Virus genome (UHGV): UHGV-0350075
Reading direction: 5' to 3' (one strand)
DNA: 53,531 bases
DNA from: a virus
This document shows positions 19,186-47,108 of this stretch, piece by piece. Both the position numbers and the translations under genes were made by a program. Each line of letters starts with the position of its first letter. Within the stretch, counting starts at the first letter, position 1. A model generated the notes under the pieces. That model did not search any database. It saw nothing but the letters and a program-made list of their open reading frames with translations, and was not told the DNA's origin.

Positions 19186-19201
19186 TGTGATCTGCGTTAC
19201 A
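19186..19201. promoter_or_regulatory. CRP-like site TGTGATCTGCGTTACA
   Basis: 8/10 match to TGTGA-N6-TCACA, 45 nt upstream of tail-fibre start; part of CCATTTTGTGATCTGCGT motif shared with 26624 and 31524. Confidence 0.35.
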
Positions 19202-26605: not shown

Positions 26606-26623
26606 TTTCTCACCTTCTGATTT

Positions 26624-26639
26624 TGTGATCTGCGTCACG
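26624..26639. promoter_or_regulatory. CRP-like site TGTGATCTGCGTCACG
   Basis: 9/10 match to TGTGA-N6-TCACA, immediately upstream of L SD. Confidence 0.4.
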
Positions 26640-26734: not shown

Positions 26735-26890
26735 ATGGCTGATAAGGTGTGGAGGTTGAAGGTATTCCTGTCAGGTGGCAGGGAAATGACTGTAGCTCTG
26801 TATAAAGACGAAGGCGAGGCACTGACTGACGCGCTATTACTCGCTGAAGACGAACGCGTTTTGGGGTACAGAATCGAACCTGTCAAATGA
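26735..26890 (+). CDS. hypothetical protein (moron islet A)
   Basis: Track ORF trimmed to ATG 26735 after GGAGGTG SD; opposite strand to tail operon. Confidence 0.4.
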   Translation: MADKVWRLKVFLSGGREMTVALYKDEGEALTDALLLAEDERVLGYRIEPVK

Positions 26891-26902
26891 GAGGTTAACG
26901 AA

Positions 26903-27250
26903 ATGCAAAAATATAGTCTTGATGTGTGGTTAAGTGGTTGCAAGGAGTGTTTCGGATTATTTGATAGCGAAGAGGCAGCTTTGGAAGAAGGAAGGATTCT
27001 TGAATGTAGTTTAGGCCATCCAGTGAAATATGCCGCTAATCCGGTGCAGATAATTGATGAGGTGGAAAACATGAATCCGAAAGATATTAACTTTAACGTC
27101 AATGTTGAATTTGCAGACTCTATGGATCAGGCTTGCCCTGGTGAAATCCACGCAAAAGGCTTCCCGGCTGACGATCCTGAAGCAAAACGCGAATACGAAA
27201 ATGCTGCTAAAGACTTCTGTATCGATAATTTAAGTTGCTTTGATAAATAG
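26903..27250 (+). CDS. hypothetical Cys-rich protein (moron islet A)
   Basis: Track ORF 115 aa; GAGAGG SD. Confidence 0.45.
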   Translation: MQKYSLDVWLSGCKECFGLFDSEEAALEEGRILECSLGHPVKYAANPVQIIDEVENMNPKDINFNVNVEFADSMDQACPGEIHAKGFPADDPEAKREYENAAKDFCIDNLSCFDK

Positions 27251-27258
27251 GCGGCAAC

Positions 27259-27507
27259 ATGGGGCGGCGCAATCACGGTGATTATGTGTACACGTTGAAA
27301 CAGGCCGCCCGCCTCATCGGTTATCATGAACACGAATTTATTGATTTGCTGATTGAGCGCGGGATACTGTATCAGGTCTGCTTAACGCTGTACCCGAAAG
27401 CGAAATACCTACAGGAAAAGTTATTCATCATCATGACGGATGAAAACCAGGTGAATCATTCATTCGTCACTGATAAGGGATTGACATACCTGAAGGGGGC
27501 GTTATGA
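27259..27507 (+). CDS. putative HTH DNA-binding protein (moron islet A)
   Basis: 82 aa; HTH-like YTLKQAARLIGYHEHEFIDLLIERGIL. Confidence 0.4.
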   Translation: MGRRNHGDYVYTLKQAARLIGYHEHEFIDLLIERGILYQVCLTLYPKAKYLQEKLFIIMTDENQVNHSFVTDKGLTYLKGAL

Positions 27508-27607: not shown

Positions 27608-27808
27608 TTATACGCCATCAAGCAAAAATAATACTTCCCTACCCTCTCTCGATCTGCATCCGACATACCCGTCACCAACATCATGAAGATACCAGATCTC
27701 GCCATTGTCTGCCTTTACAGTAAGATCTTTAATTTCATAGTCGTCAAACAATGTAAAAGCGCCAGTGCGGTCCACTACACAAATACCATACATATTAACC
27801 TCCATCAT
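27608..27808 (-). CDS. hypothetical protein
   Basis: Track ORF 66 aa; start overlaps M stop (ATGA). Confidence 0.45.
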   Translation of the reverse strand: MMEVNMYGICVVDRTGAFTLFDDYEIKDLTVKADNGEIWYLHDVGDGYVGCRSREGREVLFLLDGV

Positions 27809-28158
27809 CTGACGACTTGCTCAAATGTTGCGTTTAGCGTGTACAAAGACCCGTCTTTAGTCATGCTCCATCGGCGGCAAACAAAAAGCCTTTGCACGTT
27901 ATCCATCGACGGCGACCAGTAAAAAGCCTCGACCGCGCCGCGCGCCCTCAAGAATGCTTCCGCCTGGATTGCTACGTTTTCACCATCACCACATCCGGCG
28001 CTACTGCCTTTAAATACCAGGGTGTAGCTATCAAGCAATGGATTGATGCCTTTTACCTGTCTTTGCTCATAACCATCGCCCAGCTTAACAACGGATACGT
28101 CCGGCTCCCTGGTCACGCTGTAGCTTCGTTGTGGCGTCCACCTGAACACTTCCGGCAT
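27805..28158 (-). CDS. M: minor tail protein (lambda M-like)
   Basis: 117 aa; FRWTP...VKLGDGYEQRQ resembles lambda M N-terminus (FRWKV...VRFGDGYSQRA). Confidence 0.7.
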   Translation of the reverse strand: MPEVFRWTPQRSYSVTREPDVSVVKLGDGYEQRQVKGINPLLDSYTLVFKGSSAGCGDGENVAIQAEAFLRARGAVEAFYWSPSMDNVQRLFVCRRWSMTKDGSLYTLNATFEQVVR

Positions 28159-28190
28159 AAAACCCCCATAAGTTACATTTTGTATATATA

Positions 28191-28215
28191 TTTACGCGCT
28201 TCTACGCGAAAAATG
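28191..28215. promoter_or_regulatory. conserved 25-bp box TTTACGCGCTTCTACGCGAAAAATG
   Basis: 22/25 identical to box at 40378..40402 upstream of portal; lies upstream of M. Confidence 0.4.
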
Positions 28216-28326
28216 AGATCTTCATCACAATGATTATAGCTAGTTTACAAAATGGCTTCACATAGTACGCAACAAGATGTATATAGAAAGCAAGAAGAAA
28301 AGCAGTACCAACGAAGGAGGCCCAAA

Positions 28327-28482
28327 ATGAAACGCTATGTAGTGGTAATGCTAAACAACGCATTCGAACAAGTGGAAATAGCAATCGTTAAGGGTTTCGA
28401 CGACGCATTCAAATACGGTCAATTCATGATGAATGCAAAAGAAGATGAATACCGGGACTTCTTCCTGAAGGCACTTAACTAA
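28327..28482 (+). CDS. hypothetical protein (moron islet B)
   Basis: Track ORF trimmed to ATG 28327 after AGGAGG SD; candidate sigma70 promoter TTCACA-17-TATATA upstream. Confidence 0.45.
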   Translation: MKRYVVVMLNNAFEQVEIAIVKGFDDAFKYGQFMMNAKEDEYRDFFLKALN

Positions 28483-28499
28483 GGATGATGGGGTGAGTT

Positions 28500-28754
28500 A
28501 TGAAACTGGTAGCGATTGACAAAAATCTGAAAGCACAGAAAAACGCGCCGGGACATGTAGTCAAAAAAGCAAAGGAACTTTTGAACGCGTTTTTAAACAA
28601 GAATGCGTCACCCAAAAAATTGAAAGACGGTTACGGCTACGCCTTCCGCGCCAATTTAGACTGGCGAGTCTATAGCCAGGATCTGAAAGAGTGGGTGATT
28701 GTTGAACACCATAAATTCAATGAATTGTCTGGCGTTCGCGGTTGCCATAAGTGA
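28500..28754 (+). CDS. hypothetical protein (moron islet B)
   Basis: Track ORF 84 aa; basic; 17 nt after previous gene. Confidence 0.45.
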   Translation: MKLVAIDKNLKAQKNAPGHVVKKAKELLNAFLNKNASPKKLKDGYGYAFRANLDWRVYSQDLKEWVIVEHHKFNELSGVRGCHK

Positions 28755-28872
28755 GGTGGGTATGGAGGACGATAAATTCACCTGGAGGGAGATCTGGAAT
28801 ATTTGGTTGGTGATGTTTTCTCGCAGCTATATAGCCAGAAACGGAAGATTGTAATTTGCGGAGGAAAACAAA

Positions 28873-29043
28873 ATGAAAAATCCGGCAAATAAAAGCAACG
28901 TAAAACGCATAGCATGGGTGCTAAAATATATGGATAGCAAAGGGGATACATATACATGCCCATTTTCCAGGTATACTGATGCGGTATTTGCCAGAAGTGT
29001 ACACGGAGGGAAAATTGAAAGAGGATATACAAGATTTGAGTAA
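28873..29043 (+). CDS. hypothetical protein (56 aa, moron islet B)
   Basis: Own translation MKNPANKSNVKRIAWVLKYMDSKGD...; GGAGGAAAACAAA upstream. Confidence 0.3.
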   Translation: MKNPANKSNVKRIAWVLKYMDSKGDTYTCPFSRYTDAVFARSVHGGKIERGYTRFE

Positions 29044-29081
29044 ATTTATTCACGAAATCAATAACATAATGAAGGTTTATA

Positions 29082-29261
29082 ATGATTATTCATGAGACTG
29101 AAGAATGCAGAAGGATTGATCTTAGTGTTGAAGATGACGGAAGATTATGGATCGTGAGCGACTGCGAGATGATTGTAATAGACAAAAAGCAAGCTGACGA
29201 ACTGATAAGAGCATTACAGCTTTATGCAAACGGCGAATTTAAAAATGATGAAATTGAATAA
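29082..29261 (+). CDS. hypothetical acidic protein (59 aa, moron islet B)
   Basis: Own translation MIIHETEECRRIDLSVEDDGRLWIV...; ends 5 nt before terminator. Confidence 0.3.
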   Translation: MIIHETEECRRIDLSVEDDGRLWIVSDCEMIVIDKKQADELIRALQLYANGEFKNDEIE

Positions 29262-29266
29262 AAATA

Positions 29267-29295
29267 GCCCCGGCATTGTGCCGGGGTTTTGTTTA
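29267..29295. terminator. bidirectional intrinsic terminator
   Basis: GCCCCGGC-attgt-GCCGGGG then TTTTGTTTATTT; between convergent islet B and tape-measure gene. Confidence 0.55.
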
Positions 29296-31506
29296 TTTCC
29301 TGCGAGGTTGCAACATTCCGCCAGGTCTGGATGATTCGCGGTGCATCAGGCCCATGCAGATCCTTTCCATGTCCTGTTGTAGCTTTTTGGCATCCTCATC
29401 GCTCCATCCATTTTGTGGGTAAACACTAATCGGCGCGTTTATGCTAACGCTACCACCACCAGCACCGCCAATGTCGCGATTTGGTATTACCCTGCCGTTG
29501 TCACCCGGAATCATGTACTGACTCCCATTGCTCGCCTGAAAGATCTCCGGTTTACCGTGTTCGCCGACCTTATAGAGGCTGCCCGCAGCCACCGCACCGC
29601 CGTTATAACGAGCGCCAGCCAAGCCAAGCGCTTTTGCTCCAGCCACACCAGTGGCAAGACTCGTACCCCCCACGGTCGCCGCGCCGCCCATCGTGGCAAC
29701 GTTTGCCAGGTATGCAGGAGTAGCCCACGCAGATCCCAAAGCGGTAGCCTCTGCCAATGCTTTAGCTGTTGCGGCTGCGCTGGCGGCCTCACCTATCAAT
29801 TGCTGCTTGACCCATTCAGCCCCCATTTGAACAAGCGTACCGATAACGGAGGAAAGGATTGTATTGCCAATGTTAGCCAGCGCCTGTTGCCAGCTTTGAG
29901 TGCCGTTAACCAGGCCGACGAGCGCATTTGTTGCAGAACCGCTCATTGCATCAACGGCATCACCTAACAGTTGGTTGCTCATTGACTGCGCCTTATATCG
30001 CTCCCATTCAAGGGTGAGCATTTCCTGTGCGTGCGCCCTTTCTTGCTCCCTCATATATTGTTCGGTAGCGCCCAAATCGGTAAGCATTTGCTTGCGAACG
30101 GTCCATTCATTTTGCGCCTGCTGTATTGGGTCTAGTTCACCGCGCTTCTGATCCAGTGATGGAATCATTTTGTCCCATTTTTCTTGCAGCCTATTGATCG
30201 GGTCGTTAATTTCCGCCAGAGTTTCGCGCAATTCATCACCAATTCCCTTCATTGCACCTTTGTATTCAAGCATGGTTATTTTCCCGGCTTTAAAGGCTGC
30301 ATCTATGGCTTTTTGTGATTCAAGCGCTTTGCGCATTGCTGCTGAATCTTCGTTATATGTATCTGAAATGCGCACACCCTGTTCCGCAAGGCGCTCGGCT
30401 TCTGATTTGCCGGATTTTTTACCTTTCCTGCCTTTGCCCTTACCAGGAGGTTGAGGCTTAAATGTTATGTGACTTACACCAGCTTGCCCCGTGGGGAGAG
30501 TAGAAACAAATGGCTGTTCTCCATCGCCAAACCATCCAACCTGTTTCGCTTGAGCGCGGAACAAACTAAGCCCAGGCACTATACCCTCAAACGCCCCAGC
30601 CAATAGCCACAATTTGTCAGTTAATGACGTGCTGTCGCTCGCCAGGGACTTAAACCAGCCGGATAATATTTGGACCTCACTAGAGATAGCTTGTATACCA
30701 GTAACCACCAAATCGGACACGCCAAGCGTTTGGTTTAGCGTGTCGATTAGCAGATCGAAGTTGTTTTTTAGCTCGTTAAATGCCTGATCTGTTGTTGTTG
30801 GCAGCTTTGCGAAGTCCTTCTCTATGTCTTCTGCGCCAGCAAGAATTGCGTTGGTAACGTCCTCGGCTGTTAACTTACCATCAAGCATTCTTGCGCGAAG
30901 TTCGCCCATCGAGATTCCCATTTGTTTGGCTACGCGCCGCCACACCTCTGGCATATTTTCAAGCACAGAATTGTATTCTTCCGCGCGAACAATGCCGCCC
31001 GTCAGTGACTGCCCTAACTGGCGAAGTGCGTTTGACATTTCATCTGAGGAGCTACCGCCGATACGCCCTATTTTTTGAAGCGAGTCGGTAAGCTGCAATA
31101 CCTGCTGACTTGTCGCGCTGGTATCCTGAAGGCTGGCCTTTAGGCTTTCCCACAGCTTCCCGGTGCTTTGAACGCTCATCCCTGTACGATTCGATATCTG
31201 AATAATCCCGTCAAAATTCGATTTTGCGTCAGCAATGCCACTCGATAATCGCGTCACCCTGGCGCGTAGCAGATTCACGTTATCTGCGATCTCCAGGAAT
31301 TTTTTTGCAGCCATGACCATCATTCCAATGTTCACGGCTTTGGATAAATTACTTATCGTGGTGTTAAGTGACTGAACTGATTTATCTGTGCGTTTAGCGC
31401 CTTGCTCGATTTTATCAAGCGAGTCCTCCGCCTTGCGTTGAGCTACGAGTAACCGTTCGGTTTTTGCGTCAACGGTATACTCAATCGTGCCTACATTTGT
31501 GGTCAT
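29293..31506 (-). CDS. tail tape measure protein
   Basis: 737 aa; helical/coiled-coil, Gly/Ala-rich C-terminal part; between chaperone-position gene and M. Confidence 0.8.
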   Translation of the reverse strand: MTTNVGTIEYTVDAKTERLLVAQRKAEDSLDKIEQGAKRTDKSVQSLNTTISNLSKAVNIGMMVMAAKKFLEIADNVNLLRARVTRLSSGIADAKSNFDGIIQISNRTGMSVQSTGKLWESLKASLQDTSATSQQVLQLTDSLQKIGRIGGSSSDEMSNALRQLGQSLTGGIVRAEEYNSVLENMPEVWRRVAKQMGISMGELRARMLDGKLTAEDVTNAILAGAEDIEKDFAKLPTTTDQAFNELKNNFDLLIDTLNQTLGVSDLVVTGIQAISSEVQILSGWFKSLASDSTSLTDKLWLLAGAFEGIVPGLSLFRAQAKQVGWFGDGEQPFVSTLPTGQAGVSHITFKPQPPGKGKGRKGKKSGKSEAERLAEQGVRISDTYNEDSAAMRKALESQKAIDAAFKAGKITMLEYKGAMKGIGDELRETLAEINDPINRLQEKWDKMIPSLDQKRGELDPIQQAQNEWTVRKQMLTDLGATEQYMREQERAHAQEMLTLEWERYKAQSMSNQLLGDAVDAMSGSATNALVGLVNGTQSWQQALANIGNTILSSVIGTLVQMGAEWVKQQLIGEAASAAATAKALAEATALGSAWATPAYLANVATMGGAATVGGTSLATGVAGAKALGLAGARYNGGAVAAGSLYKVGEHGKPEIFQASNGSQYMIPGDNGRVIPNRDIGGAGGGSVSINAPISVYPQNGWSDEDAKKLQQDMERICMGLMHRESSRPGGMLQPRRK

Positions 31507-31523
31507 GATTGTTACTCCACTTT

Positions 31524-31539
31524 TGTGATCTGTGTATCT
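31524..31539. promoter_or_regulatory. CRP-like half-palindrome TGTGATCTGTGTATCT
   Basis: Left half TGTGATCT conserved, 18 nt upstream of tape-measure start; CCATTTTGTATAAAG copy at 31572. Confidence 0.3.
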
Positions 31540-31764
31540 ATTTTATACAAATTGTCTTTACTATAACGACTCCATTTTGTATAAAGAGGCTAAAGGAAAG
31601 GGATAGAGTAAAGGGATTTAAAATGACCGGATAAACCGGAGGAAGTAAAAGAGGACAAGAAAATGAAAAACGCAAACTATCGTCCCAACGAACATGAACG
31701 CTATGCGGACTTCATAGAAGAAATGTTAAAAGCACTTAAAAACAAAAATTAATCGAGGCGGGTT

Positions 31765-32262
31765 ATGAAACTGTTAGTAAAAGTTGCGGTAGCTGCGGTC
31801 ATGGCGGTATTCGCGGCCAATGCAAATGCAAGTAATGAAGTTAGCAAGATGTGCGACGCTATTTATCCAGCCTACGAAAAAGCATATACAATGGCAAATG
31901 TAAACTTCTTTTCAATTGGTAGGCACGGCGTTAACTGGGAGTATTTCATCTTAAATGAAGATAGCAGGACCAAAAAAGGTGACGCTGAAATGATAAAAGC
32001 GCACGGTGAAAGTTTCGCTTTCGTGATGGCTGCTGCTGAAAACAAACAAAATGATAATGAATTTAAAAACTTTGTCGCTGGACTTGCCATCATGGCTGCT
32101 GAACGGGCGATAAAAGATCACGACAATAACGCTTATGCCGCTGCCGACGGGATGGCGTTAGATAGGGTAAGAATTGACTTCAAAAACATGTGCGTCAAAG
32201 AAGGTGCTAACATGTATAAAAAAGCAATAGATAAACACCACGAATATTCTATAGGTTATTAA
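31765..32262 (+). CDS. secreted/periplasmic protein of unknown function (moron)
   Basis: 165 aa; signal peptide MKLLVKVAVAAVMAVFAANANA; opposite strand; followed by terminator. Confidence 0.55.
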   Translation: MKLLVKVAVAAVMAVFAANANASNEVSKMCDAIYPAYEKAYTMANVNFFSIGRHGVNWEYFILNEDSRTKKGDAEMIKAHGESFAFVMAAAENKQNDNEFKNFVAGLAIMAAERAIKDHDNNAYAAADGMALDRVRIDFKNMCVKEGANMYKKAIDKHHEYSIGY

Positions 32263-32265
32263 AAA

Positions 32266-32292
32266 GGCCCGGATCTACCGGGCTTTTTCTTG
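32266..32292. terminator. intrinsic terminator after secreted-protein moron
   Basis: GCCCGG-atcta-CCGGGC followed by TTTTTCTT. Confidence 0.5.
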
Positions 32293-32961
32293 CTCGCGAT
32301 TTTTCATTCTTTTTAGTATCTCCATAGCACCATTCATTCCATCGTCATAAGCCTTTTTATCCAGCAATACATTTGGGCGTTTTTGTTTGTTTCTTGCTTC
32401 TGGCGGCGTTTTAGCGCGTACAGCGGCCCTATATCCGGTCATTGTCATATTCCACGCTTCTGATTCTGATAACCCCAGGTGAGCTACGGCAGAATAAACG
32501 AATTCCAGCACGTTAAAAGTCGGCTTATATTCCCCTTCCCGGATCTCTCCGGCGTCTTCTTCTGGCCCGTCACCGATTAAACCGTGATACATGCAATGTT
32601 GCGCCAGCGTGATAACGTCACTGGTCGGCATCAGTCCGGGTTTTAGTCGCAATTTGCCGGAAGGAGTAAACCTACATTCACCCAATAACGGGCCTATTTC
32701 GTCTTCTGAGCAACATTTCAGGATGTGTATTGACGTTTGCACTATCTCACCATAACACCGCGCCAGAATGCGATTGCGTAGGTCTGGATCTGCTGGCAAT
32801 CGTGATGGATATTTGCCACCGTGGATGGTTGCGAAGTATTCGACCAGTTCTCTGTCACTGCCGATCTTAGCCATTGCAGCGAAACAGGGATTAAACACAT
32901 ACCGCCTGCCGTCTACCACCGCCGCAAATTGTCCTGTTCGAACATGAATCATAGTTTTCAC
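32275..32961 (-). CDS. putative tail assembly chaperone (by position)
   Basis: 228 aa between major tail and tape-measure genes; no diagnostic motif recognised. Confidence 0.4.
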   Translation of the reverse strand: MKTMIHVRTGQFAAVVDGRRYVFNPCFAAMAKIGSDRELVEYFATIHGGKYPSRLPADPDLRNRILARCYGEIVQTSIHILKCCSEDEIGPLLGECRFTPSGKLRLKPGLMPTSDVITLAQHCMYHGLIGDGPEEDAGEIREGEYKPTFNVLEFVYSAVAHLGLSESEAWNMTMTGYRAAVRAKTPPEARNKQKRPNVLLDKKAYDDGMNGAMEILKRMKNREQEKAR

Positions 32962-33005
32962 CCTAAAAGAAAGGGGCCAACGGCCCCGATTATTAATATT
33001 GATTA

Positions 33006-33482
33006 TTATGCTGCTGGGATGTCGCCAACCGTCACCTTACCAGCGCTTGAGCACTCAATAGACCAGGTGGAGACATCATCGTTCGGGTCTTCCTCTTTAA
33101 AGGAAGTGCAAAGGAATGGACCTTCAGTTACATCAACCGGAGAAACAAGTTTAAGCCACACATAAGGCTGAGATCCGGTTGTTTCACCAGGGTTAATAAC
33201 GTGACGCTTCAGTTCTTTCTGATTATGGATTGCTTCAGTACGCGATACACCATCGCCGGAGAAAGAAACAGATTTGTAAGTAACCATTGATTCTTTTGTG
33301 TAGTCTGCTGATTTATCAGCGGTGGCGTCTGCGGTTTCCCATTCGACTGAGAGCGTTTTGCCGCGCATCATTCCTAACGCTTTGTAGTCGTCATCTAACG
33401 GCTTCGCGTTAGGACAAGCGATAGCGAAGAATACAGCCACGTCGCGGCCCAAAAACGCGCCCTTTTCGCAAGTCTGAGACAT
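33006..33482 (-). CDS. major tail (tube) protein
   Basis: 158 aa; position upstream of chaperone and tape measure. Confidence 0.5.
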   Translation of the reverse strand: MSQTCEKGAFLGRDVAVFFAIACPNAKPLDDDYKALGMMRGKTLSVEWETADATADKSADYTKESMVTYKSVSFSGDGVSRTEAIHNQKELKRHVINPGETTGSQPYVWLKLVSPVDVTEGPFLCTSFKEEDPNDDVSTWSIECSSAGKVTVGDIPAA

Positions 33483-33494
33483 GTTTATTACCTC

Positions 33495-33881
33495 TTATCT
33501 GGATATGATGGTTTGAAAAGCTACGGTGAAAATAAAGCGCCCTTCTCTTGTCTGCATTGCAGGAATAGCGCCAACTGGCTTCATATGTGTAATTTTATCA
33601 GTTTTATATTCTGTTAACATACTTTGACGGATGGCGTCGGCAAGGTCTTCCACTTCACTGATATTTGCATCATTACGCGCCGAAATAACCAGGATGCGGA
33701 AATAATCACGGGTTATTGCTTCCTCACCAGCCGCGCCGCCGTTTTGCTGGATGACAATGTATCTGTCGTTATTTGAATTGGATCGCTCATTCCAGAAACG
33801 GGCCTGCAAAATATAGCCTTCATCGTACCCGTGGGATTTAATCCAATCCCTTATTTCGTCGTATACTTCGCTGCGTTTCAT
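33495..33881 (-). CDS. tail terminator-like protein (by position)
   Basis: 128 aa between gp10-like gene and major tail gene. Confidence 0.4.
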   Translation of the reverse strand: MKRSEVYDEIRDWIKSHGYDEGYILQARFWNERSNSNNDRYIVIQQNGGAAGEEAITRDYFRILVISARNDANISEVEDLADAIRQSMLTEYKTDKITHMKPVGAIPAMQTREGRFIFTVAFQTIISR

Positions 33882-34318
33882 GTTTTGTAACCTTCTACAA
33901 TCTCTTTATAAATATCGTCAGCGTTGTTTGGATCTTCGAATGCCTTGCGCAAAAATTCCGGCTCCGCGTTTGGGTCCCAATATTTACCTTTTCCAGTACC
34001 GCCGCCGAATTCAACCCCTTCGCTAGTCTTGCCGAAATGTTCGCGCGGCTGTCCTTTTAATTTACCTGGCATATTGTGCACCCATTCAGCATACCGGGCC
34101 GTATATCCCAGCCGTAACTGCATACCCTCCGCCGTGCTACCTATATACTGAAATTGGCTGTTAATTAAAAAACCCGTATCAACGGGGGTCATGTTCGCCG
34201 CGAAGCCACCAGCCAGCATCCCTACTCGCCATAACACCTCATGAGTTTTCTTATCTGTGATTTCCTTTAGCTCCTGCTTTAATCGCTCCCTGACACGTTT
34301 AACACCCTTGATAGGCAT
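33878..34318 (-). CDS. tail completion protein (HK97 gp10-like)
   Basis: 146 aa; family-like pattern and position. Confidence 0.45.
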   Translation of the reverse strand: MPIKGVKRVRERLKQELKEITDKKTHEVLWRVGMLAGGFAANMTPVDTGFLINSQFQYIGSTAEGMQLRLGYTARYAEWVHNMPGKLKGQPREHFGKTSEGVEFGGGTGKGKYWDPNAEPEFLRKAFEDPNNADDIYKEIVEGYKT

Positions 34319-34320
34319 GA

Positions 34321-34689
34321 TTAACCCCCTGTCACGATCTTATAATCCGGCGTGTCGTTAAACATGCTCATATCCCATTCAACGATTCCGGTTATAACGT
34401 TCGCACCTGCCGCCAGCGGGTCTGAAATATCAGTGGTGTCGCCAGTGGCAATCATCCAGCCTTTTTCCGGGCGCTGCACTGGCTGCATATTGTGAAGCAG
34501 TTCGGTAAATACAGTTATTGTATTGCTAACCTCATTGCCGTTTGTGTCTGTTGCAGTGCCGTCTGTGCGCTCCCATGCGCAGTTAATCAGGTATGGTGCA
34601 CCGTATACATCGGAGTTTGTCCAGTCGTCATGCGTTACGGGGTAAATGGTGGCTAATGCCTTGTAACTGAATCGCGCAATCTTACTCAT
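34321..34689 (-). CDS. head closure / head-tail connector protein (by position)
   Basis: 122 aa; synteny. Confidence 0.4.
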   Translation of the reverse strand: MSKIARFSYKALATIYPVTHDDWTNSDVYGAPYLINCAWERTDGTATDTNGNEVSNTITVFTELLHNMQPVQRPEKGWMIATGDTTDISDPLAAGANVITGIVEWDMSMFNDTPDYKIVTGG

Positions 34690-34867
34690 AACCGTAACTC
34701 CAGCTAATGACCTTTGGATGAGTTTTCGCCACGCGCGGGCAAAGAATTACCCATTCACCAGCATCATTGAGATAGGCGGCGACCTGTCGCCCTGTGTCAG
34801 TCTTCACCCATACGCGGGTAAACGGCTTCGGCATTAGTGGTTTTGGTAACGTTAGGTCGTTCCACAT
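34682..34867 (-). CDS. hypothetical protein
   Basis: Track ORF 61 aa, overlapping both neighbours. Confidence 0.4.
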   Translation of the reverse strand: MWNDLTLPKPLMPKPFTRVWVKTDTGRQVAAYLNDAGEWVILCPRVAKTHPKVISWSYGYE

Positions 34868-34869
34868 GG

Positions 34870-35256
34870 TTACATCCTCCCACTCTTACCTATCCATAGT
34901 CCGGCATGTGCGGTGGCTTCAGGATCTGCGGGAATCAGTTCGGCTGTGCAATTATGCCTGTCAATCGAGCGTAGCAACGAGCAAGCCGCCTTCCATTTTT
35001 TATTGAAATCAACATAGCGGTAAGACTGGCTTGCACCGTTCGGACCTGTGTGTGAGGAAACGTATTTATTCGCCTGTGTGAGTCCTAATAGCCCGATCAG
35101 ATAAAGCTGAATTAATGTTGCAGTGGAGGCCGGATAGTTAGCATCAAGGCATTCATTAACGCTATTTGCCTGTTCCACCAGCAAAGATAAGATAATGTCT
35201 GGCAGGTCAATACCCTGGCTTTCAAGATATTCCCGCGCCTGTTCTGTAGTGACCAT
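34870..35256 (-). CDS. head-tail adaptor protein (by position)
   Basis: Track ORF 34870..35292 trimmed to ATG 35256 because the upstream extension runs into a terminator hairpin. Confidence 0.4.
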   Translation of the reverse strand: MVTTEQAREYLESQGIDLPDIILSLLVEQANSVNECLDANYPASTATLIQLYLIGLLGLTQANKYVSSHTGPNGASQSYRYVDFNKKWKAACSLLRSIDRHNCTAELIPADPEATAHAGLWIGKSGRM

Positions 35257-35272
35257 TTTGTTTGCTCCACAT

Positions 35273-35302
35273 ACAAAAAAAATCCCCGGCATCGCGCCGG
35301 GG
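35273..35302 (-). terminator. intrinsic terminator/attenuator after major capsid gene
   Basis: CCCCGGC-atcgc-GCCGGGG followed on reverse strand by ATTTTTTTTGT, 20 nt after capsid stop. Confidence 0.55.
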
Positions 35303-35321
35303 AGTTACAGGAAATACAAAA

Positions 35322-36374
35322 TTATTTGTGACCGTAAACGACACCGGAACGGCCCAGCATGTCGCAGGTGATTTGTAAACCTTCGGCAGACATGATTTTG
35401 AAGTTGTAGTTATCGGTAGGCATGGTGCGCGGCAGAGGCACTACGCCAGTAGTCATACCAACCAGCGGGGTAATGACGTTGCGGCGGCGTTGATAGGCAA
35501 TGAACTCGTTGCCTTTCAGTGCATAGGTCTGACGGATTTCTTTAACCGGAATGAACGGTTTAACGATATTCAGAACACTGCCTACGACAGTCCCGTTTGC
35601 AATGTGCGGCGCTGCCAGGTTAGCCATAATTTCAGGTGACACCCACATGAGATCATACTGGTCAACGCGGTTGTTGCGGGCCATAACACCGAATGCACCA
35701 GTGGTGAAGAATTTGATGAGAGCATCGAATCCGTCAGTGGTGAGATCTTCGGAGGTCATGACTAGTTGCTGGGTATTGCGGTGATTTTTAATACCCTGGC
35801 CAGGTTTACCGTTGACGTTGATTTTTGCGTTACCGTTAAGGTAATAATCAACGCGGGCCTTGTTGAATTTTTGCAGTTTCAGGCGCTGGCTATCCAGTGC
35901 AAGGTCAATACCAACAGTTTTCAGACCTTCGGAATGACGCCAGCTGACACCGTAACCCGCTGCGAACATCGGGATCGGGTCGCCATCGCTGCCATATTCA
36001 GTGTGATCGAAGCCATGCGGGGCTTGACCATCGATACTAACGACAACTTCATCGTTAATATCACCGGATACACTGTACATTTTCTCGGTTTTACCGATTG
36101 GCAATACGGTTTGCACAGCCATCAAATCGTTTACGATTTCAATACCAGTCTCTTCGGTGCTCATTTCGATAATCTGGTTATCGACAGCTTTCCAGAACTC
36201 CTGATCGAAGCCGCCAACGGCATTACATGCCAGGATGTCAGCGGTCATGTTTGCCATATTTGCGGCAATAAGAGCGCCGTCCTGATCATTGAACATGTTG
36301 CGCTGCGCCCACAGGTGATCCCACTGAGCACGAATGCGGCTGTTGGTAGCAAGGTTGTGTTTATTAAACAACAT
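35322..36374 (-). CDS. major capsid protein
   Basis: 350 aa; after scaffold and decoration genes, before terminator; forward-strand overlapping ORFs judged shadows. Confidence 0.7.
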   Translation of the reverse strand: MLFNKHNLATNSRIRAQWDHLWAQRNMFNDQDGALIAANMANMTADILACNAVGGFDQEFWKAVDNQIIEMSTEETGIEIVNDLMAVQTVLPIGKTEKMYSVSGDINDEVVVSIDGQAPHGFDHTEYGSDGDPIPMFAAGYGVSWRHSEGLKTVGIDLALDSQRLKLQKFNKARVDYYLNGNAKINVNGKPGQGIKNHRNTQQLVMTSEDLTTDGFDALIKFFTTGAFGVMARNNRVDQYDLMWVSPEIMANLAAPHIANGTVVGSVLNIVKPFIPVKEIRQTYALKGNEFIAYQRRRNVITPLVGMTTGVVPLPRTMPTDNYNFKIMSAEGLQITCDMLGRSGVVYGHK

Positions 36375-36393
36375 AGTTTTTCACCTCTTATTA

Positions 36394-36804
36394 TTATGCA
36401 ACGCGGACACGTACAAAATCAGCCGCTTCAAGGGTTACAGCTTCCTGGCAGAAAGCGAAAACCGGATCGGCAGAGTCACCAGTTGCCGCTACTTTAAAGC
36501 CATCAGCACCAATGGTGATACCAGCGTCTTTGGTGTAAGTGCCTTCAGGAAGCAGGATTGCGAATTCGCGGGCTTCTTCTGCGTAGTCAGCGACCACGGA
36601 ATGACCAGCCGGAATTGCATCTTCAATACCCAGGCCTTCATGGTATGCTGGATTAACAACATAAATACGGCCTACGGTATCGGTGGCGGCAACGAATTTA
36701 CCAGCCGTCATTTTTACCGGGGTGCCTGGTTTAAGCTCTGCGGCAGATACTGCGGTTTCGGTAATAGATTTACCGTCAATATTCACACGACGAAAACGGG
36801 CCAT
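36394..36804 (-). CDS. head decoration protein (DUF2190-like)
   Basis: 136 aa just upstream of capsid gene; Gly/Ala-rich beta-type composition. Confidence 0.5.
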   Translation of the reverse strand: MARFRRVNIDGKSITETAVSAAELKPGTPVKMTAGKFVAATDTVGRIYVVNPAYHEGLGIEDAIPAGHSVVADYAEEAREFAILLPEGTYTKDAGITIGADGFKVAATGDSADPVFAFCQEAVTLEAADFVRVRVA

Positions 36805-36814
36805 AATTCACCTC

Positions 36815-38125
36815 TTATGCGAAATAGTTGTTAATGTCAGGGGTAGCAGGTTTATTTCCACCAGCGGCTGAGTTTGCTGCCATTGGTGCTGCTTTACCCA
36901 GGGATTTAAACATTGCTTCTAACGCTTCACCGCTTAATGCGTTAGCAACAATTTCGCCGTGTACTTTCGCAACTGCGGCGCGTTTTTCTGCTACTTCTTT
37001 ATTTGCGTTTGCTGCGATCTCTTCTTTAATCGCTTTCTGATTGGTCTGTAATTCTTCAACGCTTGCCTGCACTGGTTTTAATGCCTCTGCTACTGCATTA
37101 GCGATATTAGCGGCTAAGCCTTCGTTAATTTCTTTTACCAGTTCGGCGCGTTCTTCTTTGGTCAAAGGCATGGGATCGTCCTCCGATTTATTGGCCTTAA
37201 TTTTTTCATTCAGGGAGAAAAGATTAGAAAGGTGTTCAGCGAACTGCGTAAACCAGGATTTACTTTCCTCGTTGGTTGCAAGCTCGCCATTATTGAGAAT
37301 AATTTTATCAGCCTGTTTTTCATATGCGCAAACTTGAGCACTTTCAGTATTAGTGGCGATCGTCACTTCTTTATCAGTGAAGTCCACCACATACACATAA
37401 TCGGCGTCAGGGAATAATTCCCGCGCGGCGTCGGTTAATTGTTTCTCAAGTGTGCGGTAGCTGTTTTCTTTCATTGCCACCGCCATTAACGGTTTCGCCT
37501 GGTCAGTATTAACCATCAGGCCAACGCCTTGCTCTGGTGAAGCGGCTGGCGGCTCATGCAGCAAAATAGCGTCATGGTCGATAGACATGATTTTCACCAC
37601 ATGGTCGGCCCCCTGGGCTTTCATCTCTTCAGTAGCTGGCATGCGTTGACGATATACAGCGACGGATGACCAGATCGGATCTTTGCTTTCTCCTTTCTCC
37701 AGTGCTTCCAGTCTGCTTAATAATTCGCGGCCTTGCTCTGAATGGCTGGCGGTTTCCACATCCACCCATTTTTCCACATAAACACGGTTGCCGCGTAATT
37801 CAACGTTTCTATTCCACGCTCCACAAAAACCCGTGTTTAATCCTTCCGGGCTAAATGCGGAAACAAATTTACCGTCCACGGTAGGATGACCCAGCGGGGC
37901 AAGCGTACCCTCCAGTGACTGGTAATTAGCGATAATTTCAGCTTCCGGGTAATATTCCCGATTCATTACGATGTTAAATGGTAGTGTATATGACGGGACA
38001 ACGATATGCTCGCGACCGTTATATGTTTCACGGCGTATGGTATTAGCGGTTAATTTGGTATTAACCTGAATCAGTTCTTTACTCACGGTTTTACTCCCAA
38101 TCTTCGCCATATTTAGCGTGCGCAA
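36815..38125 (-). CDS. capsid scaffolding protein (possibly protease-scaffold fusion)
   Basis: 436 aa; C-terminal Ala/Glu/Lys-rich coiled coil typical of scaffolds; between morphogenesis and decoration genes. Confidence 0.45.
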   Translation of the reverse strand: MRTLNMAKIGSKTVSKELIQVNTKLTANTIRRETYNGREHIVVPSYTLPFNIVMNREYYPEAEIIANYQSLEGTLAPLGHPTVDGKFVSAFSPEGLNTGFCGAWNRNVELRGNRVYVEKWVDVETASHSEQGRELLSRLEALEKGESKDPIWSSVAVYRQRMPATEEMKAQGADHVVKIMSIDHDAILLHEPPAASPEQGVGLMVNTDQAKPLMAVAMKENSYRTLEKQLTDAARELFPDADYVYVVDFTDKEVTIATNTESAQVCAYEKQADKIILNNGELATNEESKSWFTQFAEHLSNLFSLNEKIKANKSEDDPMPLTKEERAELVKEINEGLAANIANAVAEALKPVQASVEELQTNQKAIKEEIAANANKEVAEKRAAVAKVHGEIVANALSGEALEAMFKSLGKAAPMAANSAAGGNKPATPDINNYFA

Positions 38126-38987
38126 CTTTATAGTTTTCTTGCGCTCGATCTAATATTCTTTCGTTTAATATGTTACCGTCTTCGTCAACTAATACGGTAA
38201 TCGTGCTACATTTGCAGTTAATTGAATTTGGGGATCTGCTCCACCATTCGCGCTGCTCATCTATGGTGTATGTTTTCCCGTGCCGCTGCGCGTGCGATAG
38301 CCTGGTAGTCGGTGACAATGCCGAAATGTGCATTTGCATGGTGCGCAGATTAAGCTCTTCTGTCGCCGCTTCTGCCTCATCCATACGCGCTGTGCGTAAC
38401 GCTGTGCATATTTCAGTTCGGGCAATACGTTTGCACCTGTATAGCGGCAATTGCGTTTCCTGCTGCAATGTGCGCGCTATTTCCAGTGGATTTAAACCAC
38501 GGGCCATCCCTTCGGTTAATCGCCGGGCCATATCCTTCTTGATCTGTGCTGTTAGCCCGCGCATTTCCTCAAATACACGGGTACGAACAAGGGCAAGGCG
38601 CGTGCGGTAAGTCGTACTTGATAGCACGGCGGATACATCAGGATAAGCGCTTGAGTAAGTAACAGACTGGTTGGCAAGGTTGGCGTATTCCTGCGCGGTC
38701 CCTCGCTGATATGCAACCTTCACGTACTCCTGCCAAAACCAAAAACTTTCCGGGTCGGTTAGCTCGAATATCTCATCAATCATGTCGCTGGCGTCCTCCA
38801 GCATGTCGTGCAATTCATCCATGTAAATCTGGAAGGTGTATTTTTTATTAACAGCCAGGCTATATTGTATTCTGTCCAGTATGGCGATATATGGATCGGC
38901 TATTTTCTTCAGGCAGGATTTGAAACGCTTAATAGCCCCCGACCGTAACTTACCTGTCATGGTCGGGTCTTCGGTGTTAGATGGCAT
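38091..38987 (-). CDS. head morphogenesis protein (SPP1 gp7 / Mu F-like)
   Basis: Track ORF trimmed to ATG 38987; family-like pattern; directly after portal. Confidence 0.6.
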   Translation of the reverse strand: MPSNTEDPTMTGKLRSGAIKRFKSCLKKIADPYIAILDRIQYSLAVNKKYTFQIYMDELHDMLEDASDMIDEIFELTDPESFWFWQEYVKVAYQRGTAQEYANLANQSVTYSSAYPDVSAVLSSTTYRTRLALVRTRVFEEMRGLTAQIKKDMARRLTEGMARGLNPLEIARTLQQETQLPLYRCKRIARTEICTALRTARMDEAEAATEELNLRTMQMHISALSPTTRLSHAQRHGKTYTIDEQREWWSRSPNSINCKCSTITVLVDEDGNILNERILDRAQENYKVAHAKYGEDWE

Positions 38988-40377
38988 TATCGCGGAGGGC
39001 GGAATCTTTTTGATTATTCTCTTTACTTTCATCTTCATCTTTATCGTCCTCGTCTTCCACTTCTACTTCCTGCGTTGGCCCCTCATATCCGGCAGCTTCG
39101 CGGATCTCATCACCGCTGAATACCTGCTCACCAGTAGCAAGACATGCCTGATTGATTTGCGCCATCTTGTGTGCCGCTTCCAGTAGTTCGGCTTTGGTCA
39201 TAGCGTTAAGGTCATCCCATAGCACTGATATGTCGCGTGGCTCACTGGTAAGGCGTAGATCTGCCAGTTTGCGGAATAGTTCTTCAAGCTCGCCTCCGAT
39301 TTCCTGGCGGCGGGTCATGCATCGGTTATTGAAATAGCGGAGATCTTCAGTTGATGCTCGTTCACCCTGTTGATTCCCAACTAGGATACGCGTTGGAATG
39401 TCGATACCAGCGGCGGCGGTTTGCAGGTTTACATCATAGGTTGCGGACGGGTCAGATACGGCAGTTACCAGCGGGCTTACTGTTGCGCCCTGTAACGCCA
39501 TCATCACATCATTACCTTTATTCATTTCCGCTGCGGCTTCATTGAATTTTTCGCGTAACTCTGTGACGTCGCAGTCATACGTTGCAGCCAGTGAGCGGAA
39601 GTCAATTTCTTTGTCGAATGAGATGGCAAGCTGGCGTGCGGCGTTCTTCAGGAATGACTCACCACTACCACCTTCCACTTTCTCCAGCGAAACGAAAGCG
39701 TTATAGGATGGCTCAAGGAAAGCGATAGCATCATCAGAATAGTCACCAAAGATAAATATCCGGTCTGGATGTATTTTCCTTGCGATGGTCTTGCTGTTGA
39801 TGCGTTCTTTGTATTCCCACCATGTCGGCAGACCGTAGTTATCGCTATCCGGGTTTTCATCGAAGTCCTTTGGTGTTAGTGCGCCAGCCCATACAGGAGT
39901 GAATTTAGCGATGCCTACCCCTTTTGTTACTGGACGATCCCACGGCTGGTTATCTTTGACGTGAATCAATAGTCCGGCATAACGACCAACCAGGCGACGG
40001 CGATCGCATTCAGCAATAACACGCCAGAATCGGTTATCGAATTGTTTCTTTATTTCTCTTTCCCAGGGTGTTTCCGTTTCCGCTTTCTCGTCTTCAGTGC
40101 CTTCTATCAGCACCGGGCTATCGCGCCAGCATGTGGTGATAATTTTTTCAATGGCCCCGTGAGCAATACCACCGCGACGATACAGCTTATATAGATCAGT
40201 ATAGGTAAGCTCTTCTTTGAATCCGTATTCACTCCACGCGGCGTTACGTTTAGCATCGATCCCCATAGTGAATGGGTTAGCGGCTGCATAGCGGGCAAAG
40301 GCCGCCTGGCGTTGTGACAAGGCAGCATTAACCGCCAATTCTAAATTGGATGGCATAATGTTTACTCCTGAATACAT
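38977..40377 (-). CDS. portal protein
   Basis: 466 aa after terL; acidic C-terminus; size and synteny. Confidence 0.7.
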   Translation of the reverse strand: MYSGVNIMPSNLELAVNAALSQRQAAFARYAAANPFTMGIDAKRNAAWSEYGFKEELTYTDLYKLYRRGGIAHGAIEKIITTCWRDSPVLIEGTEDEKAETETPWEREIKKQFDNRFWRVIAECDRRRLVGRYAGLLIHVKDNQPWDRPVTKGVGIAKFTPVWAGALTPKDFDENPDSDNYGLPTWWEYKERINSKTIARKIHPDRIFIFGDYSDDAIAFLEPSYNAFVSLEKVEGGSGESFLKNAARQLAISFDKEIDFRSLAATYDCDVTELREKFNEAAAEMNKGNDVMMALQGATVSPLVTAVSDPSATYDVNLQTAAAGIDIPTRILVGNQQGERASTEDLRYFNNRCMTRRQEIGGELEELFRKLADLRLTSEPRDISVLWDDLNAMTKAELLEAAHKMAQINQACLATGEQVFSGDEIREAAGYEGPTQEVEVEDEDDKDEDESKENNQKDSALRDNAI

Positions 40378-40402
40378 GTTTACGCGTTGCTACGCGAAAA
40401 AT
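40378..40402. promoter_or_regulatory. conserved 25-bp box GTTTACGCGTTGCTACGCGAAAAAT
   Basis: Immediately upstream of portal start; near-identical to box at 28191..28215. Confidence 0.4.
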
Positions 40403-40434: not shown

Positions 40435-41919
40435 TTAAAATCCGCGCAGGCGCTTCGGTAACATGAGGCCCATAGCCTGTGGCTGGCTTAGTTCGGTGAT
40501 ACCCCACACCATTGCATCCATACGGTCAGGGGATTTCTTAGCGGTAGCTGGCACGTATTCCATCATTTGATTTTCCAGCGTGTACAGCTCACCAGTGTGG
40601 GCCACCCTTCCTTGTGCATACAGTGCAGATATTGGTTCGGCACGGGCGAATTTACCCTTGCTTGCGTGCACCTTAACAATGCGGCCTTTGAATCCGGCGT
40701 TACGTAGCGTGGCCTCTGCCATTTCGCCGCCCTGGTTGGTTTCGATAACTATCGCGTCAGCTTCATGGATGTTATAAGCGTTCATTGATGCTTGCGCCCA
40801 GTCGTTAGGAGACATGCGGCCTGAGTAGTCACCGTCTACAGAATACTGAGCGTACTTGCCGCCACCATAAGCGGAACATGCTACGATCCCGGTTTCGTCC
40901 GATTCTTCCGATGATGTTGTCGCCGGGTCAATGGCTATCACGGTGCGGATCTTGTCCTGCGTTATCTGCATCCGGTGCGCTGCGGTTATCATCGCTTCAG
41001 TCCACAATGCACCCTCTTCGTCGAATTTACGCGGGCGCTGCATGTACTGGGCCTCAAATGACCGCCTGTGTGCTTTCAGTCCAGCTTCATGGGCGTCATT
41101 GTGCTTTTTAGGCCATAGCCAGCCGTCTGGCAGGTTGTGAGGAATAGGGATTGCGAACTCGTTTTCAGGGTACAAATCCCGGTAGTCAACGCTGTTGTCG
41201 ATCTTCACTGGCAAGTTCAGGTGATGCCATTTCTCACCACTCCCACCGCGTAGCAGGTAGCCGGACAAATCATCGTAGTGGATGCGCTGCATGATGACGA
41301 TAACAGGCGTCGTTTGCACTGCCAGACGTGAAGCAAGCGTGTCGTTATAGTTAGTGTTTACCTGCTTTCTCACCACGTCAGAGTAAGCGTCGGCGGGCTT
41401 TAATGGGTCGTCGATGATTAACGCACCGTTAAATCCTGGTTCCATATACCCCGCACGGAACCCAGTAACCTGGCCAAGCGATGACGTTGCATACACGCCG
41501 CCACCGTATTCAGTCCACCACATCGATTTACTGTTTGCATCGTTGCGGATCTTCATGGGCCACATTGCCTGATACTCAGGCGTACAGATCATGTTTCTTA
41601 CAGTTGAGGAGTTGAGTAGCGCCAGGTTGTTGGAATAGGAAACGTGAAGGAATCGTGTGCGGGGATTTATTGCGAGGGACCGCGCCATCATGTTGATAGT
41701 GGCGATCATGGTTTTGCCGTACCCTGGGGGGATGTTGATGATGAGTCGGGTTATCTCACCATTGACAACGCGTTGCAGTGCGTCGCGGATAGCTAAATGA
41801 TGGCCTGAGATTAACATCTTCGTTCCGTTCGCTTGCTTATAGAAGTAGCGATTGAAAAACAGGCCATCGTTTTCACATTTGGACTGAATAACTCGTTCTT
41901 TGATTGTCAACATAATCAC
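40435..41919 (-). CDS. terL: terminase large subunit
   Basis: 494 aa; Walker A-like PPGYGKTM; overlaps terS stop (ATGA). Confidence 0.85.
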   Translation of the reverse strand: MIMLTIKERVIQSKCENDGLFFNRYFYKQANGTKMLISGHHLAIRDALQRVVNGEITRLIINIPPGYGKTMIATINMMARSLAINPRTRFLHVSYSNNLALLNSSTVRNMICTPEYQAMWPMKIRNDANSKSMWWTEYGGGVYATSSLGQVTGFRAGYMEPGFNGALIIDDPLKPADAYSDVVRKQVNTNYNDTLASRLAVQTTPVIVIMQRIHYDDLSGYLLRGGSGEKWHHLNLPVKIDNSVDYRDLYPENEFAIPIPHNLPDGWLWPKKHNDAHEAGLKAHRRSFEAQYMQRPRKFDEEGALWTEAMITAAHRMQITQDKIRTVIAIDPATTSSEESDETGIVACSAYGGGKYAQYSVDGDYSGRMSPNDWAQASMNAYNIHEADAIVIETNQGGEMAEATLRNAGFKGRIVKVHASKGKFARAEPISALYAQGRVAHTGELYTLENQMMEYVPATAKKSPDRMDAMVWGITELSQPQAMGLMLPKRLRGF

Positions 41920-46994: not shown

Positions 46995-47073
46995 CTTCTT
47001 GCCTCCCCTCCGCCTTTCCGTGGCTTATATATAACAAAATGGCACTGTCGAAACAATGCCATTTCGTATACAT

Positions 47074-47089
47074 TGTGATACAGATCACA
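47074..47089. promoter_or_regulatory. CRP-like palindrome TGTGATACAGATCACA
   Basis: Perfect TGTGA-N6-TCACA in 114-bp gap 46995..47108; flanked by ACAAAATGGCA and TGCCATTT. Confidence 0.45.
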
Positions 47090-47108
47090 TTTATGGTTGT
47101 CCAACGCC

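Follow-up and report, generated by a model that had tools for sequence, protein, structure and literature searches.

A conserved box upstream of the portal and M genes of an mEpimmI-group coliphage and its possible role as an RNA leader hairpin

The UHGV virus genome UHGV-0350075, a stretch of 53,531 nucleotides that was analyzed as a whole (the window), contains a 24-nt box in two copies, one just upstream of the tail gene M and the other just upstream of the portal gene. The box is a real element under purifying selection, and it is lineage specific. It lies in untranslated sequence in the orientation of the mRNA, it can fold into a hairpin as RNA, and its natural variants retain that fold in the sense strand only. 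From these properties we infer that the box may be a sequence-specific leader hairpin in the sense RNA that acts post-transcriptionally on portal and M, a reading that we consider evenly poised between being right and wrong.

The region is 95% identical to that of Escherichia phage MagusPhagus and 80-86% identical to those of the phages mEp021, mEp515, mEp013, mEp010, mEp044 and mEp554. Judged by this sequence identity the phage is a temperate Escherichia coli phage of the mEpimmI group (mEp021/MagusPhagus). The group comprises Nus-dependent, non-lambdoid temperate coliphages and was described in 2025 (PMC11893012). That paper deals with an early N-like antitermination system, and the box and the late promoters go unmentioned in it.

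The two boxes and their conservation

The consensus of the box is TTTACGCGnnnCTACGCGAAAAAT, and its copies at 28191-28214 and 40379-40402 are identical at 22 of 24 positions. In register these read TTTACGCGCTTCTACGCGAAAAAT and TTTACGCGTTGCTACGCGAAAAAT respectively, and both contain the direct repeat TACGCG-N4-TACGCG. The pair of similar sequences and the repeat had been noticed in the original prediction, where the count of 22/25 arose from 25-mers taken one base out of register. That prediction had also proposed a search for further copies and a comparison with related phages. When up to three mismatches are allowed on both strands of the window the two boxes are the sole matches, and the chance expectation is 0.00 (there was no match in any of 100 dinucleotide-preserving shuffles). 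A covariance model made from 30 homologues and run on the window likewise finds two copies only, at 62.7 and 62.6 bits; the next match scores 14 bits with E ~0.8. Weaker matches to the direct repeat at 15867-15885 and 25532-25547 fall within long open reading frames (ORFs) and were taken as chance.

Because M and portal are minus-strand genes, the box reads functionally as 5'-ATTTTTCGCGTAGnnnCGCGTAAA-3'. The two boxes and the hairpins that extend them are:

28191..28214, minus strand: box 1, at the M site, sense ATTTTTCGCGTAGAAGCGCGTAAA; the core is unchanging in 37 unique relatives
40379..40402, minus strand: box 2, at the portal site, sense ATTTTTCGCGTAGCAACGCGTAAA; the core is unchanging in 35 unique relatives
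28188..28214, minus strand: extended sense hairpin of the M site, A-UUUUU-CGCG-U[AGAA]G-CGCG-(bulged U)-AAA-N-R-U, from the fold and pair counts
40376..40402, minus strand: extended sense hairpin of the portal site, from the fold and pair counts

The end of box 1 is 33 nt from the ATG of M (28158), and that of box 2 is 22 nt from the portal ATG (40356). Both boxes are untranslated sense-strand sequence in mRNA orientation, placed 9-23 nt 5' of the Shine-Dalgarno sequence.

Related phages keep the box at both sites. The four GenBank relatives that we compared have an identical box in both places, with differing flanks, and in total it was found at both sites in ~45 IMG/VR contigs and 7 GenBank phages. 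A first scan of IMG/VR, which required exact repeats, gave 85 stretches in ~45 contigs of ~54 kb, in the same two contexts and typically one of each per contig. The scan was repeated with anchoring on the flanks only, and both repeats were intact in 34 of 36 true M sites and in 48 of 49 true portal sites. None of the 20 core columns varies at either site, compared with 76 of the 159 other intergenic columns (48%) at the M site and 15 of 36 upstream of the portal box. The box is therefore under selection, given an invariant core within flanks of which 48% varies. The central three nucleotides vary freely, being CTT, ATT, CCT, TTG or TTT at M and TTG, CTT, TAG or TCG at portal. The portal-site region is present in 34 of 5426 complete E. 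coli genomes and the M-site region in 29 of 5426, with one copy each.

The range of the box is narrow. The hexamer TATAAT, discussed below, is found together with the box or a close variant of it in all 31 viral loci where M is at least 81% identical, and in none of the 49 loci where M is at most 70% identical (homologues including those of 58-70%). Prophages of other Enterobacterales genera have no box at M, which there directly follows the tape-measure gene or a terminator, and the terL-portal junction of the next-closest portal relatives, the Salmonella phages S107 and Oslo, is also without it. The absence of the box from distant homologues of portal (56-60% identity) and M (58-70%) means that there is no deeper covariation to draw upon. 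The 24-mer can serve as a diagnostic marker of the mEpimmI lineage, with two copies per genome and none in relatives below ~70% identity. In some of the other Enterobacterales prophages (L093, L095, L099, L106, L108-L110, L112 and L114) a strong intrinsic terminator stands 5-15 nt before the start of M with no visible promoter, which implies that expression of M in these distant prophages depends wholly on antiterminated readthrough.

Folding of the box as RNA

The box can be read in two ways. In the sense RNA it is a stem-loop, A-UUUUU-CGCG-U[AGNA]R-CGCG-(bulged U)-AAA-N-R-U, forming an 11-bp bulged hairpin. As DNA it is a pair of CGCGTAR half-sites, repeated at 10 bp and parted by 3 bp that are free to vary. 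We folded the commonest M-site variant, which is one base off the copy in the window, in a 34-nt context and compared it with 200 shuffles. The sense RNA adopts exactly the predicted hairpin at −9.3 kcal/mol (z −2.46), with 5 of 200 shuffles as good, and the antisense RNA reaches −5.0 kcal/mol (z −0.97). Across the unique sequences 94-95.5% of the pair cells are paired, compared with 23-79% when the partner columns are slid. Variation occurs at six of the 11 pairs; it is always one-sided and mostly leaves the pair intact. Base pairs are thus preserved across homologues, as would be expected generally of a structured cis-regulatory RNA. At the foot of the helix an invariant A and an invariant T (sense positions 24 and 50) each stand alone among variable columns, as pairing between them would explain, and the free variation of the central three nucleotides is that expected of loop positions.

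The most divergent members of the family provide natural variants of the stem and loop. L210 and L214 have the first arm CGCG changed to UGCG, which turns a C-G pair into U.G, while L215 has the same change in the second arm and so has G.U for G-C. In L211 and L212 one central base is deleted. All three types keep the sense hairpin, with free energies of −6.2 to −7.7 kcal/mol (z −1.7 to −3.0), whereas the two point variants read as antisense RNA give only −2.9 and −3.0 kcal/mol (z ~−0.8). The single-nucleotide deletion changes the phasing of the half-sites from 10 to 9 bp in the DNA; in the RNA it only shortens the loop.

A number of observations weigh against a hairpin acting as RNA. In a 45-nt context it is statistically unremarkable (z −0.7 and −1.1). 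The 11-pair core helix, in which the four G-C pairs are almost invariant, shows no compensatory double change. Two-sided changes are confined to an optional 12th outer pair (unpaired in 8 of 30 sequences) and do not exceed those of the shuffles; all other changes are one-sided and wobble-preserving. Covariation statistics are therefore uninformative, with shuffle controls equal to the observed values. The stem substitutions number only two independent events, and C-to-T is the commonest type of mutation. The invariant UAG half of the loop, the bulged U and the exact CGCG would be equally expected of a DNA-binding site with two CGCGTAR elements. Lastly, we screened ~35 uncharacterized phage proteins and found no recognizable nucleic-acid-binding domain among them; these included the 51-aa and ParE-like pair, the KilAC protein, the product of the 66-aa gene after M and ~20 small proteins encoded between Q and terS.

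The base-by-base conservation of the stem, the half-loop and the bulge indicates that the sequence itself is read by something, for which a DNA-binding protein is equally possible. One reason to favor an RNA element is that it could serve a 5' leader just as well as a spacer between cistrons where no promoter is present. At the M site the hairpin would lie at ~+13 to +36 of the transcript from a putative promoter P_M, and at the portal site it would be intercistronic, between terL and portal within the Q-antiterminated late mRNA. It would be an operator recognized either by a factor specific to the phage lineage or by a host RNA-binding or processing factor, and that factor would determine how well the portal and M messages are translated and/or how stable they are, irrespective of the upstream RNA. 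Action as RNA, binding by a factor and the direction of the effect are indirect conclusions. A more specific proposal, which we think unlikely, is that both hairpins serve as operators in a small unrecognized post-transcriptional regulon, in which an mEpimmI-specific factor co-controls the synthesis of portal, which initiates head assembly, and of gpM, a tail-tip protein. That factor could be an assembly protein acting in feedback inside the Q-antiterminated late operon, and the initiation of head and tail would then be set independently of transcription.

The boxB hairpins in the nut sites of lambda and P22 and the coat-protein operator of MS2/R17 are RNA hairpins that are recognized by protein. 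The box resembles them in its short G+C stem (such hairpins occurring with or without a bulge), its small purine-rich loop, its placement in untranslated sense RNA, its conserved sequence and its low copy number. It differs from boxB in lacking a boxA at the usual spacing, in its AGNA loop and in belonging to a late rather than an early operon. A nut site can be rejected, as there is no boxA ~8 nt upstream of the hairpin. The nut sites of mEp021 (n=3) have GCTCTTTAA or CGCTCATTAA, whereas at the box sites the stem is directly preceded by ATCTCATTTTT or TTTCTATTTTT, and the loops of the box are AGAA and AGCA (UAGAAG and UAGCAA) in contrast to the GNRA-like GCGA, GAAA and GGAAG of the mEp021 nut sites. 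An intrinsic terminator was rejected too, since on the sense strand the U-run precedes the stem and the A-run follows it, and a terminator scan was silent on both strands. A search of the whole window with Rfam 15 gave no match at the gathering score, and near the boxes there was nothing beyond sub-threshold noise.

The nearest described phenomenon is that of the start-associated sequences (SAS) and extended start-associated sequences (ESAS) of Cluster K mycobacteriophages. In those phages short repeats peculiar to the lineage stand in one orientation just before the start codons of some of the genes, and some are inverted repeats with a variable spacer; they are conserved gene by gene, and a post-transcriptional or translational role is suspected (PMC3203893). 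The box is also lineage specific, in one orientation just upstream of start codons and conserved gene by gene in relatives. It differs in having two copies rather than 11-19 per genome, and in standing before the Shine-Dalgarno sequence where the SAS includes the ribosome-binding site. Its arms are ~8-11 nt compared with the 17 bp of the ESAS, and there is no relationship in host or sequence.

The usual picture of a lambda-like late operon is of one Q-antiterminated transcript, on which translation signals alone determine the ratios of the proteins. The mEpimmI group differs in that its tail operon is cut by accessory blocks on the opposite strand and restarted by internal promoters, and two specific late genes share one strictly conserved leader element. 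An element of this kind, a lineage-specific cis-regulatory leader repeat or hairpin, contradicts no established mechanism so far. Were the RNA operator to be correct, it would offer a handle on the dosing of portal and tail-tip proteins in common, little-studied gut coliphages, and would enlarge the small set of sequence-specific RNA operators known from double-stranded DNA phages.

Transcription of the two sites and alternative explanations

All the late genes lie on the minus strand, in the order terS, terL, portal, Mu-F-like head protein, capsid, tail genes, tape measure, M, L, K, I and J. The phage encodes a lambda-type Q (PF03589, 1e-29), so that the late mRNA is expected to be made by a terminator-resistant polymerase. 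Accessory blocks on the plus strand split the tail operon in three places, i.e. before the tape measure, between the tape measure and M, and between M (with the 66-aa gene) and L. The features that bear on the two sites are:

41916-42401, minus strand: terS, Sf6-like
40435..41919, minus strand: the large terminase gene terL, with its stop codon TAA at 40437-40435, 32 nt upstream of box 2
38977..40356, minus strand: portal gene (PF06381, 6e-20), with the ribosome-binding site AGGAG at 40365-40369 and a second in-frame ATG at 40377
29293-31506, minus strand: tape-measure gene
29266..29288, both directions: strong bidirectional intrinsic terminator directly after the tape-measure gene, parting that gene from the plus-strand block and M
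28257..28285, plus strand: divergent promoter TTCACA-N17-TATATA, which serves the 51-aa/ParE-like pair, has conserved blocks and resembles PR
28256..28261, minus strand: GTGAAG, putative weak −35 (3/6) with 17-bp spacing to TATAAT, overlapping the −35 of the divergent plus-strand promoter
28233..28238, minus strand: TATAAT, putative sigma70 −10 of P_M, 19 nt upstream of box 1, unchanged in 37/37 unique sequences while flanking columns vary
28225..28230, minus strand: TTGTGA, near-invariant, holding the putative start of P_M
28218..28223, minus strand: −10-like hexamer nAnnnT (GAAGAT in the window), 9 nt after TATAAT, with only A2 and T6 invariant (37 sequences)
27805..28158, minus strand: tail gene M, encoding a minor tail protein of the lambda gpM family (PF05939, 6e-28)

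A promoter of its own makes sense for M, because a terminator and an opposite-strand block lie upstream of it. In the sense direction the M site reads GTGAAG (28261-28256), a 17-nt spacer, TATAAT (28238-28233), CAT, TTGTGA, T, GAAGAT, CTCA and then the box, TTTTTCGCGTAGAAGCGCGTAAA, which is followed by TATATATACAAAATGTAACTTAT, GGGGG, TTTT and the ATG of M (28158). TATAAT together with GTGAAG is a plausible sigma70 promoter for M, and on the evidence of the sequence M would begin a separate transcription unit, starting from TATAAT and not from the box. Given that P_M is upstream of box 1, the box would therefore be transcribed, at ~+13 to +36. The original prediction had placed each box before the first gene of a structural block; this applies to M with its own unit, but not to portal, which is behind terS and terL on the same strand with a terL-portal gap of 57-78 nt.

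By analogy with other systems, the hexamer of the M site could be a sigma70-dependent promoter-proximal pause element. Loading of Q or AlpA uses binding elements (QBE and ABE) that are positioned upstream of a −10-like pause hexamer, between the −35 and the −10 (PMC9371919). The combination of a lambda-type Q with a P_M that has an invariant −10, followed 9 nt on by a hexamer with A2 and T6, is like that of lambda PR'-type promoters (PMC9371919), a likeness that concerns the context of box 1 and not the box. With this architecture P_M might possibly be a second Q-loading promoter, carrying polymerase past the terminator after the 66-aa gene and into L-J. The box differs from a QBE or ABE in its position, since it lies 4 nt downstream of the M-site hexamer and thus on the wrong side, and at the portal site a promoter is lacking and the only candidate for a pause element is weak. 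The PR' of the phage was sought for comparison, and no convincing candidate emerged. The AlpA-family protein of the literature is probably the excisionase beside the integrase, judged by position only. We also rejected a CRP-like palindrome, TGAGA-N6-TCACA (28214-28229), that abuts box 1; only its TCACA half is invariant, which coincides with the putative start of the M transcript, and there is no equivalent at box 2.

The portal site reads, in the sense direction, the TAA of terL (40437-40435), a C-rich spacer of 32 nt, ATTTTTCGCGTAGCAACGCGTAAA, CATGTATTC, AGGAG, TAAACATT and ATG (40356). There is no terminator between the co-oriented terL and portal genes and no conserved promoter at the site; the CACAAT found at the position equivalent to TATAAT is without its essential T in 9 of 35 unique sequences. 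In ~10 relatives (L013, L022 and eight others) an AT-rich insertion of ~85 bp, with the palindrome CTTCGAAAA/TTTTCGAAG, is present between the terL stop and the box region. It looks like a small mobile or recombinational insert, and in these variants the box stays with the start of portal and not with the end of terL.

Short repeated sites serve activators of late or other phage promoters, e.g. TGT-N12-ACA for P2 Ogr, the sites of Mu C, and TTGC-N6-TTGC for lambda CII. The box could be thought a promoter or activator site of this sort, as it recurs as a short motif before two late genes, its direct repeat has the 10-bp period of CII sites and M requires a promoter behind the strong terminator and opposite-strand block. 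The geometry to any usable −10 fails at both sites, however. A consensus scan for sigma70 promoters reports none at either site, and there is no workable −35/−10 in either direction. In the sense direction a −10 at 12-17 nt past the box would put the start within the Shine-Dalgarno sequence GGGGG at M, or at or after AGGAG/ATG at portal. In the antisense direction the sole candidate is TTTACG-N17-T(G/A)nnA(T/A), of which the −10 is not conserved, and at portal it would run antisense to terL. A CII-like arrangement fails both on spacing and on the non-conserved −10 hexamers. The invariant TATAAT of M lies upstream, such that the box would be transcribed from P_M, and a Q- or AlpA-type element would precede the pause hexamer that the box follows. 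Nor is the box a general restart signal or the mark of a set of activator-dependent late promoters, because the restarts at the tape-measure gene, L and the tail fiber gene are without it and share the 12-mer CAGATCACAAAA instead. A promoter or activator site is therefore very unlikely, and the shared promoter for separate late units offered in the original prediction does not survive, there being no −35/−10 layout that suits both sites in either orientation. The alternative wording of that prediction, a processing or regulator-binding element, is still a viable description, and the box is indeed a selected cis-element.

A more serious rival is a DNA operator, in which the tandem CGCGTAR half-sites 10 bp apart, or on another reading the imperfect palindrome TTTWCGCG-N6-CGCGWAAA, bind a phage or host protein that represses or roadblocks transcription into M and portal. 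The 7+3 pattern of conservation, (CGCGTAG nnn)(CGCGTAA Ann), is one that half-sites in contact with a protein and parted by a free spacer typically show, half of the supposed loop is invariant, and the stem bases never covary, which suggests that the sequence itself is read. Box 1 would moreover lie at a distance from a sigma70 promoter at which repressors can act. At portal, on the other hand, such an operator is disfavored because there is no promoter there to act on; only a roadblock against the Q-modified, terminator-resistant polymerase would be possible. The natural deletion in L211 and L212 alters the phasing of the half-sites, and the CGCG cores have two known substitutions, precisely the ones by which G.U pairs are retained in the sense RNA. 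No context-specific DNA-binding protein was identified among the screened phage proteins, and the box does not resemble the sequences around PR and the repressor gene. Taken together, we regard a DNA operator as doubtful.

Returning to the RNA, the hairpin could work with no dedicated factor, as a processing site and 5' stabilizer. In this sub-case of the RNA model an RNase E-type cut in R-UUUU would leave a protective 5' hairpin, and the half-lives of the portal and M mRNAs would be decoupled from the upstream RNA. The purine and U-run directly 5' of the stem are conserved at both sites and resemble the loose preference of RNase E, RN/WUU. Any readthrough RNA at the M site would run antisense to the plus-strand block and be liable to degradation. 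In E. coli both 5' stem-loops, e.g. the 5' hairpin of ompA, and intercistronic hairpins are known to stabilize mRNA, and hairpins like that of ompA need structure only and lie within a few nucleotides of the 5' end. Like it, the box hairpin is upstream of an A/U-rich leader and a Shine-Dalgarno sequence and could decouple the downstream message from upstream RNA, but it is conserved base by base and would be internal unless the RNA were processed. Transcripts from P_M would have ~11-12 unpaired nucleotides 5' of the hairpin, the U-run pairs with the A-run in the best fold and is thus not single stranded for RNase E, and structure alone does not account for the invariant half-loop, the bulge or the sequence of the stem. 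A recognition hairpin acting as an operator appears to fit the conservation better than a purely structural stabilizer, which we find quite improbable. Least probable of all is a repeat with no regulatory role, i.e. a remnant of duplication or recombination, a linker at module junctions, a pac signal or a coding constraint. Both copies are at junctions of variable gene content (the moron block by M, the 85-bp insertion by portal), terS resembles that of the headful packager Sf6 and some pac regions have phased repeats, and the TAG of the box ends a small annotated ORF. Yet an invariant core within flanks of which 48% of the columns vary points to selection, a pair of 24-bp direct repeats at a distance of 12 kb would do nothing but favor deletion, and a pac site is expected once, near terS, and not also by M. 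A coding constraint or a terL readthrough peptide was rejected because the small ORF has no conserved start, is prematurely stopped in three variants and varies freely in amino acid sequence.

Accessory blocks and other motifs

The accessory block beside box 1 (28327-28754, plus strand) contains a 51-aa ORF and a gene for a ParE-like toxin (PF24732, 1e-7), which are probably a toxin-antitoxin pair. The next block (26735-27507, plus strand) encodes a protein with a KilAC/ANT antirepressor domain (PF03374). The promoters of the accessory blocks resemble PR, having CAAAATGG followed by the −35, and the presence of such blocks among the late genes is reminiscent of the immI region of P22. In E. 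coli prophages the portal gene carries the PGAP label 'anti-CBASS protein Acb1 family protein' (RefSeq, matches H48-H52). It matches the Pfam family Phage_portal_3 (6e-20) and no NCBIfam model, and its neighbors are terL and the Mu-F-like head protein; the label is probably misleading.

The second leader motif, CAGATCACAAAA, has exact copies at 19183-19194, 26621-26632 and 31521-31532, all on the minus strand. These are in the leaders of the tail fiber gene (15685-19140), L and the tape-measure gene, each of which restarts after an opposite-strand block. With up to two mismatches there are 17 matches compared with 5.7 expected, and the exact copies are only partly conserved in relatives. The motif contains GATC, and the phage encodes a Dam methylase (459-998).

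A further motif, ACAAAATG, occurs 24 times in the window where ~4 are expected, in the flavors tttACAAAATGG and tatACAAAATG(t/g). Its sites include 6341, 7184, 10231, 28183, 31580 and 52255 on the minus strand and 19214, 26712, 28247 and 52183 on the plus strand. Several copies directly precede the −35 of PR and those of the plus-strand accessory promoters, and two flank box 1 in inverted orientation. The motif may be an operator or UP-like element, although some copies are merely contexts of start codons. Between Q and the lysis genes (47020-47100, minus strand) there is a promoter- or terminator-like cluster, comprising a perfect CRP-type palindrome TGTGATCTGTATCACA (47089-47074), then a hairpin AATGGCA-N12-TGCCATT, and then TTTGTTATATATAAG.

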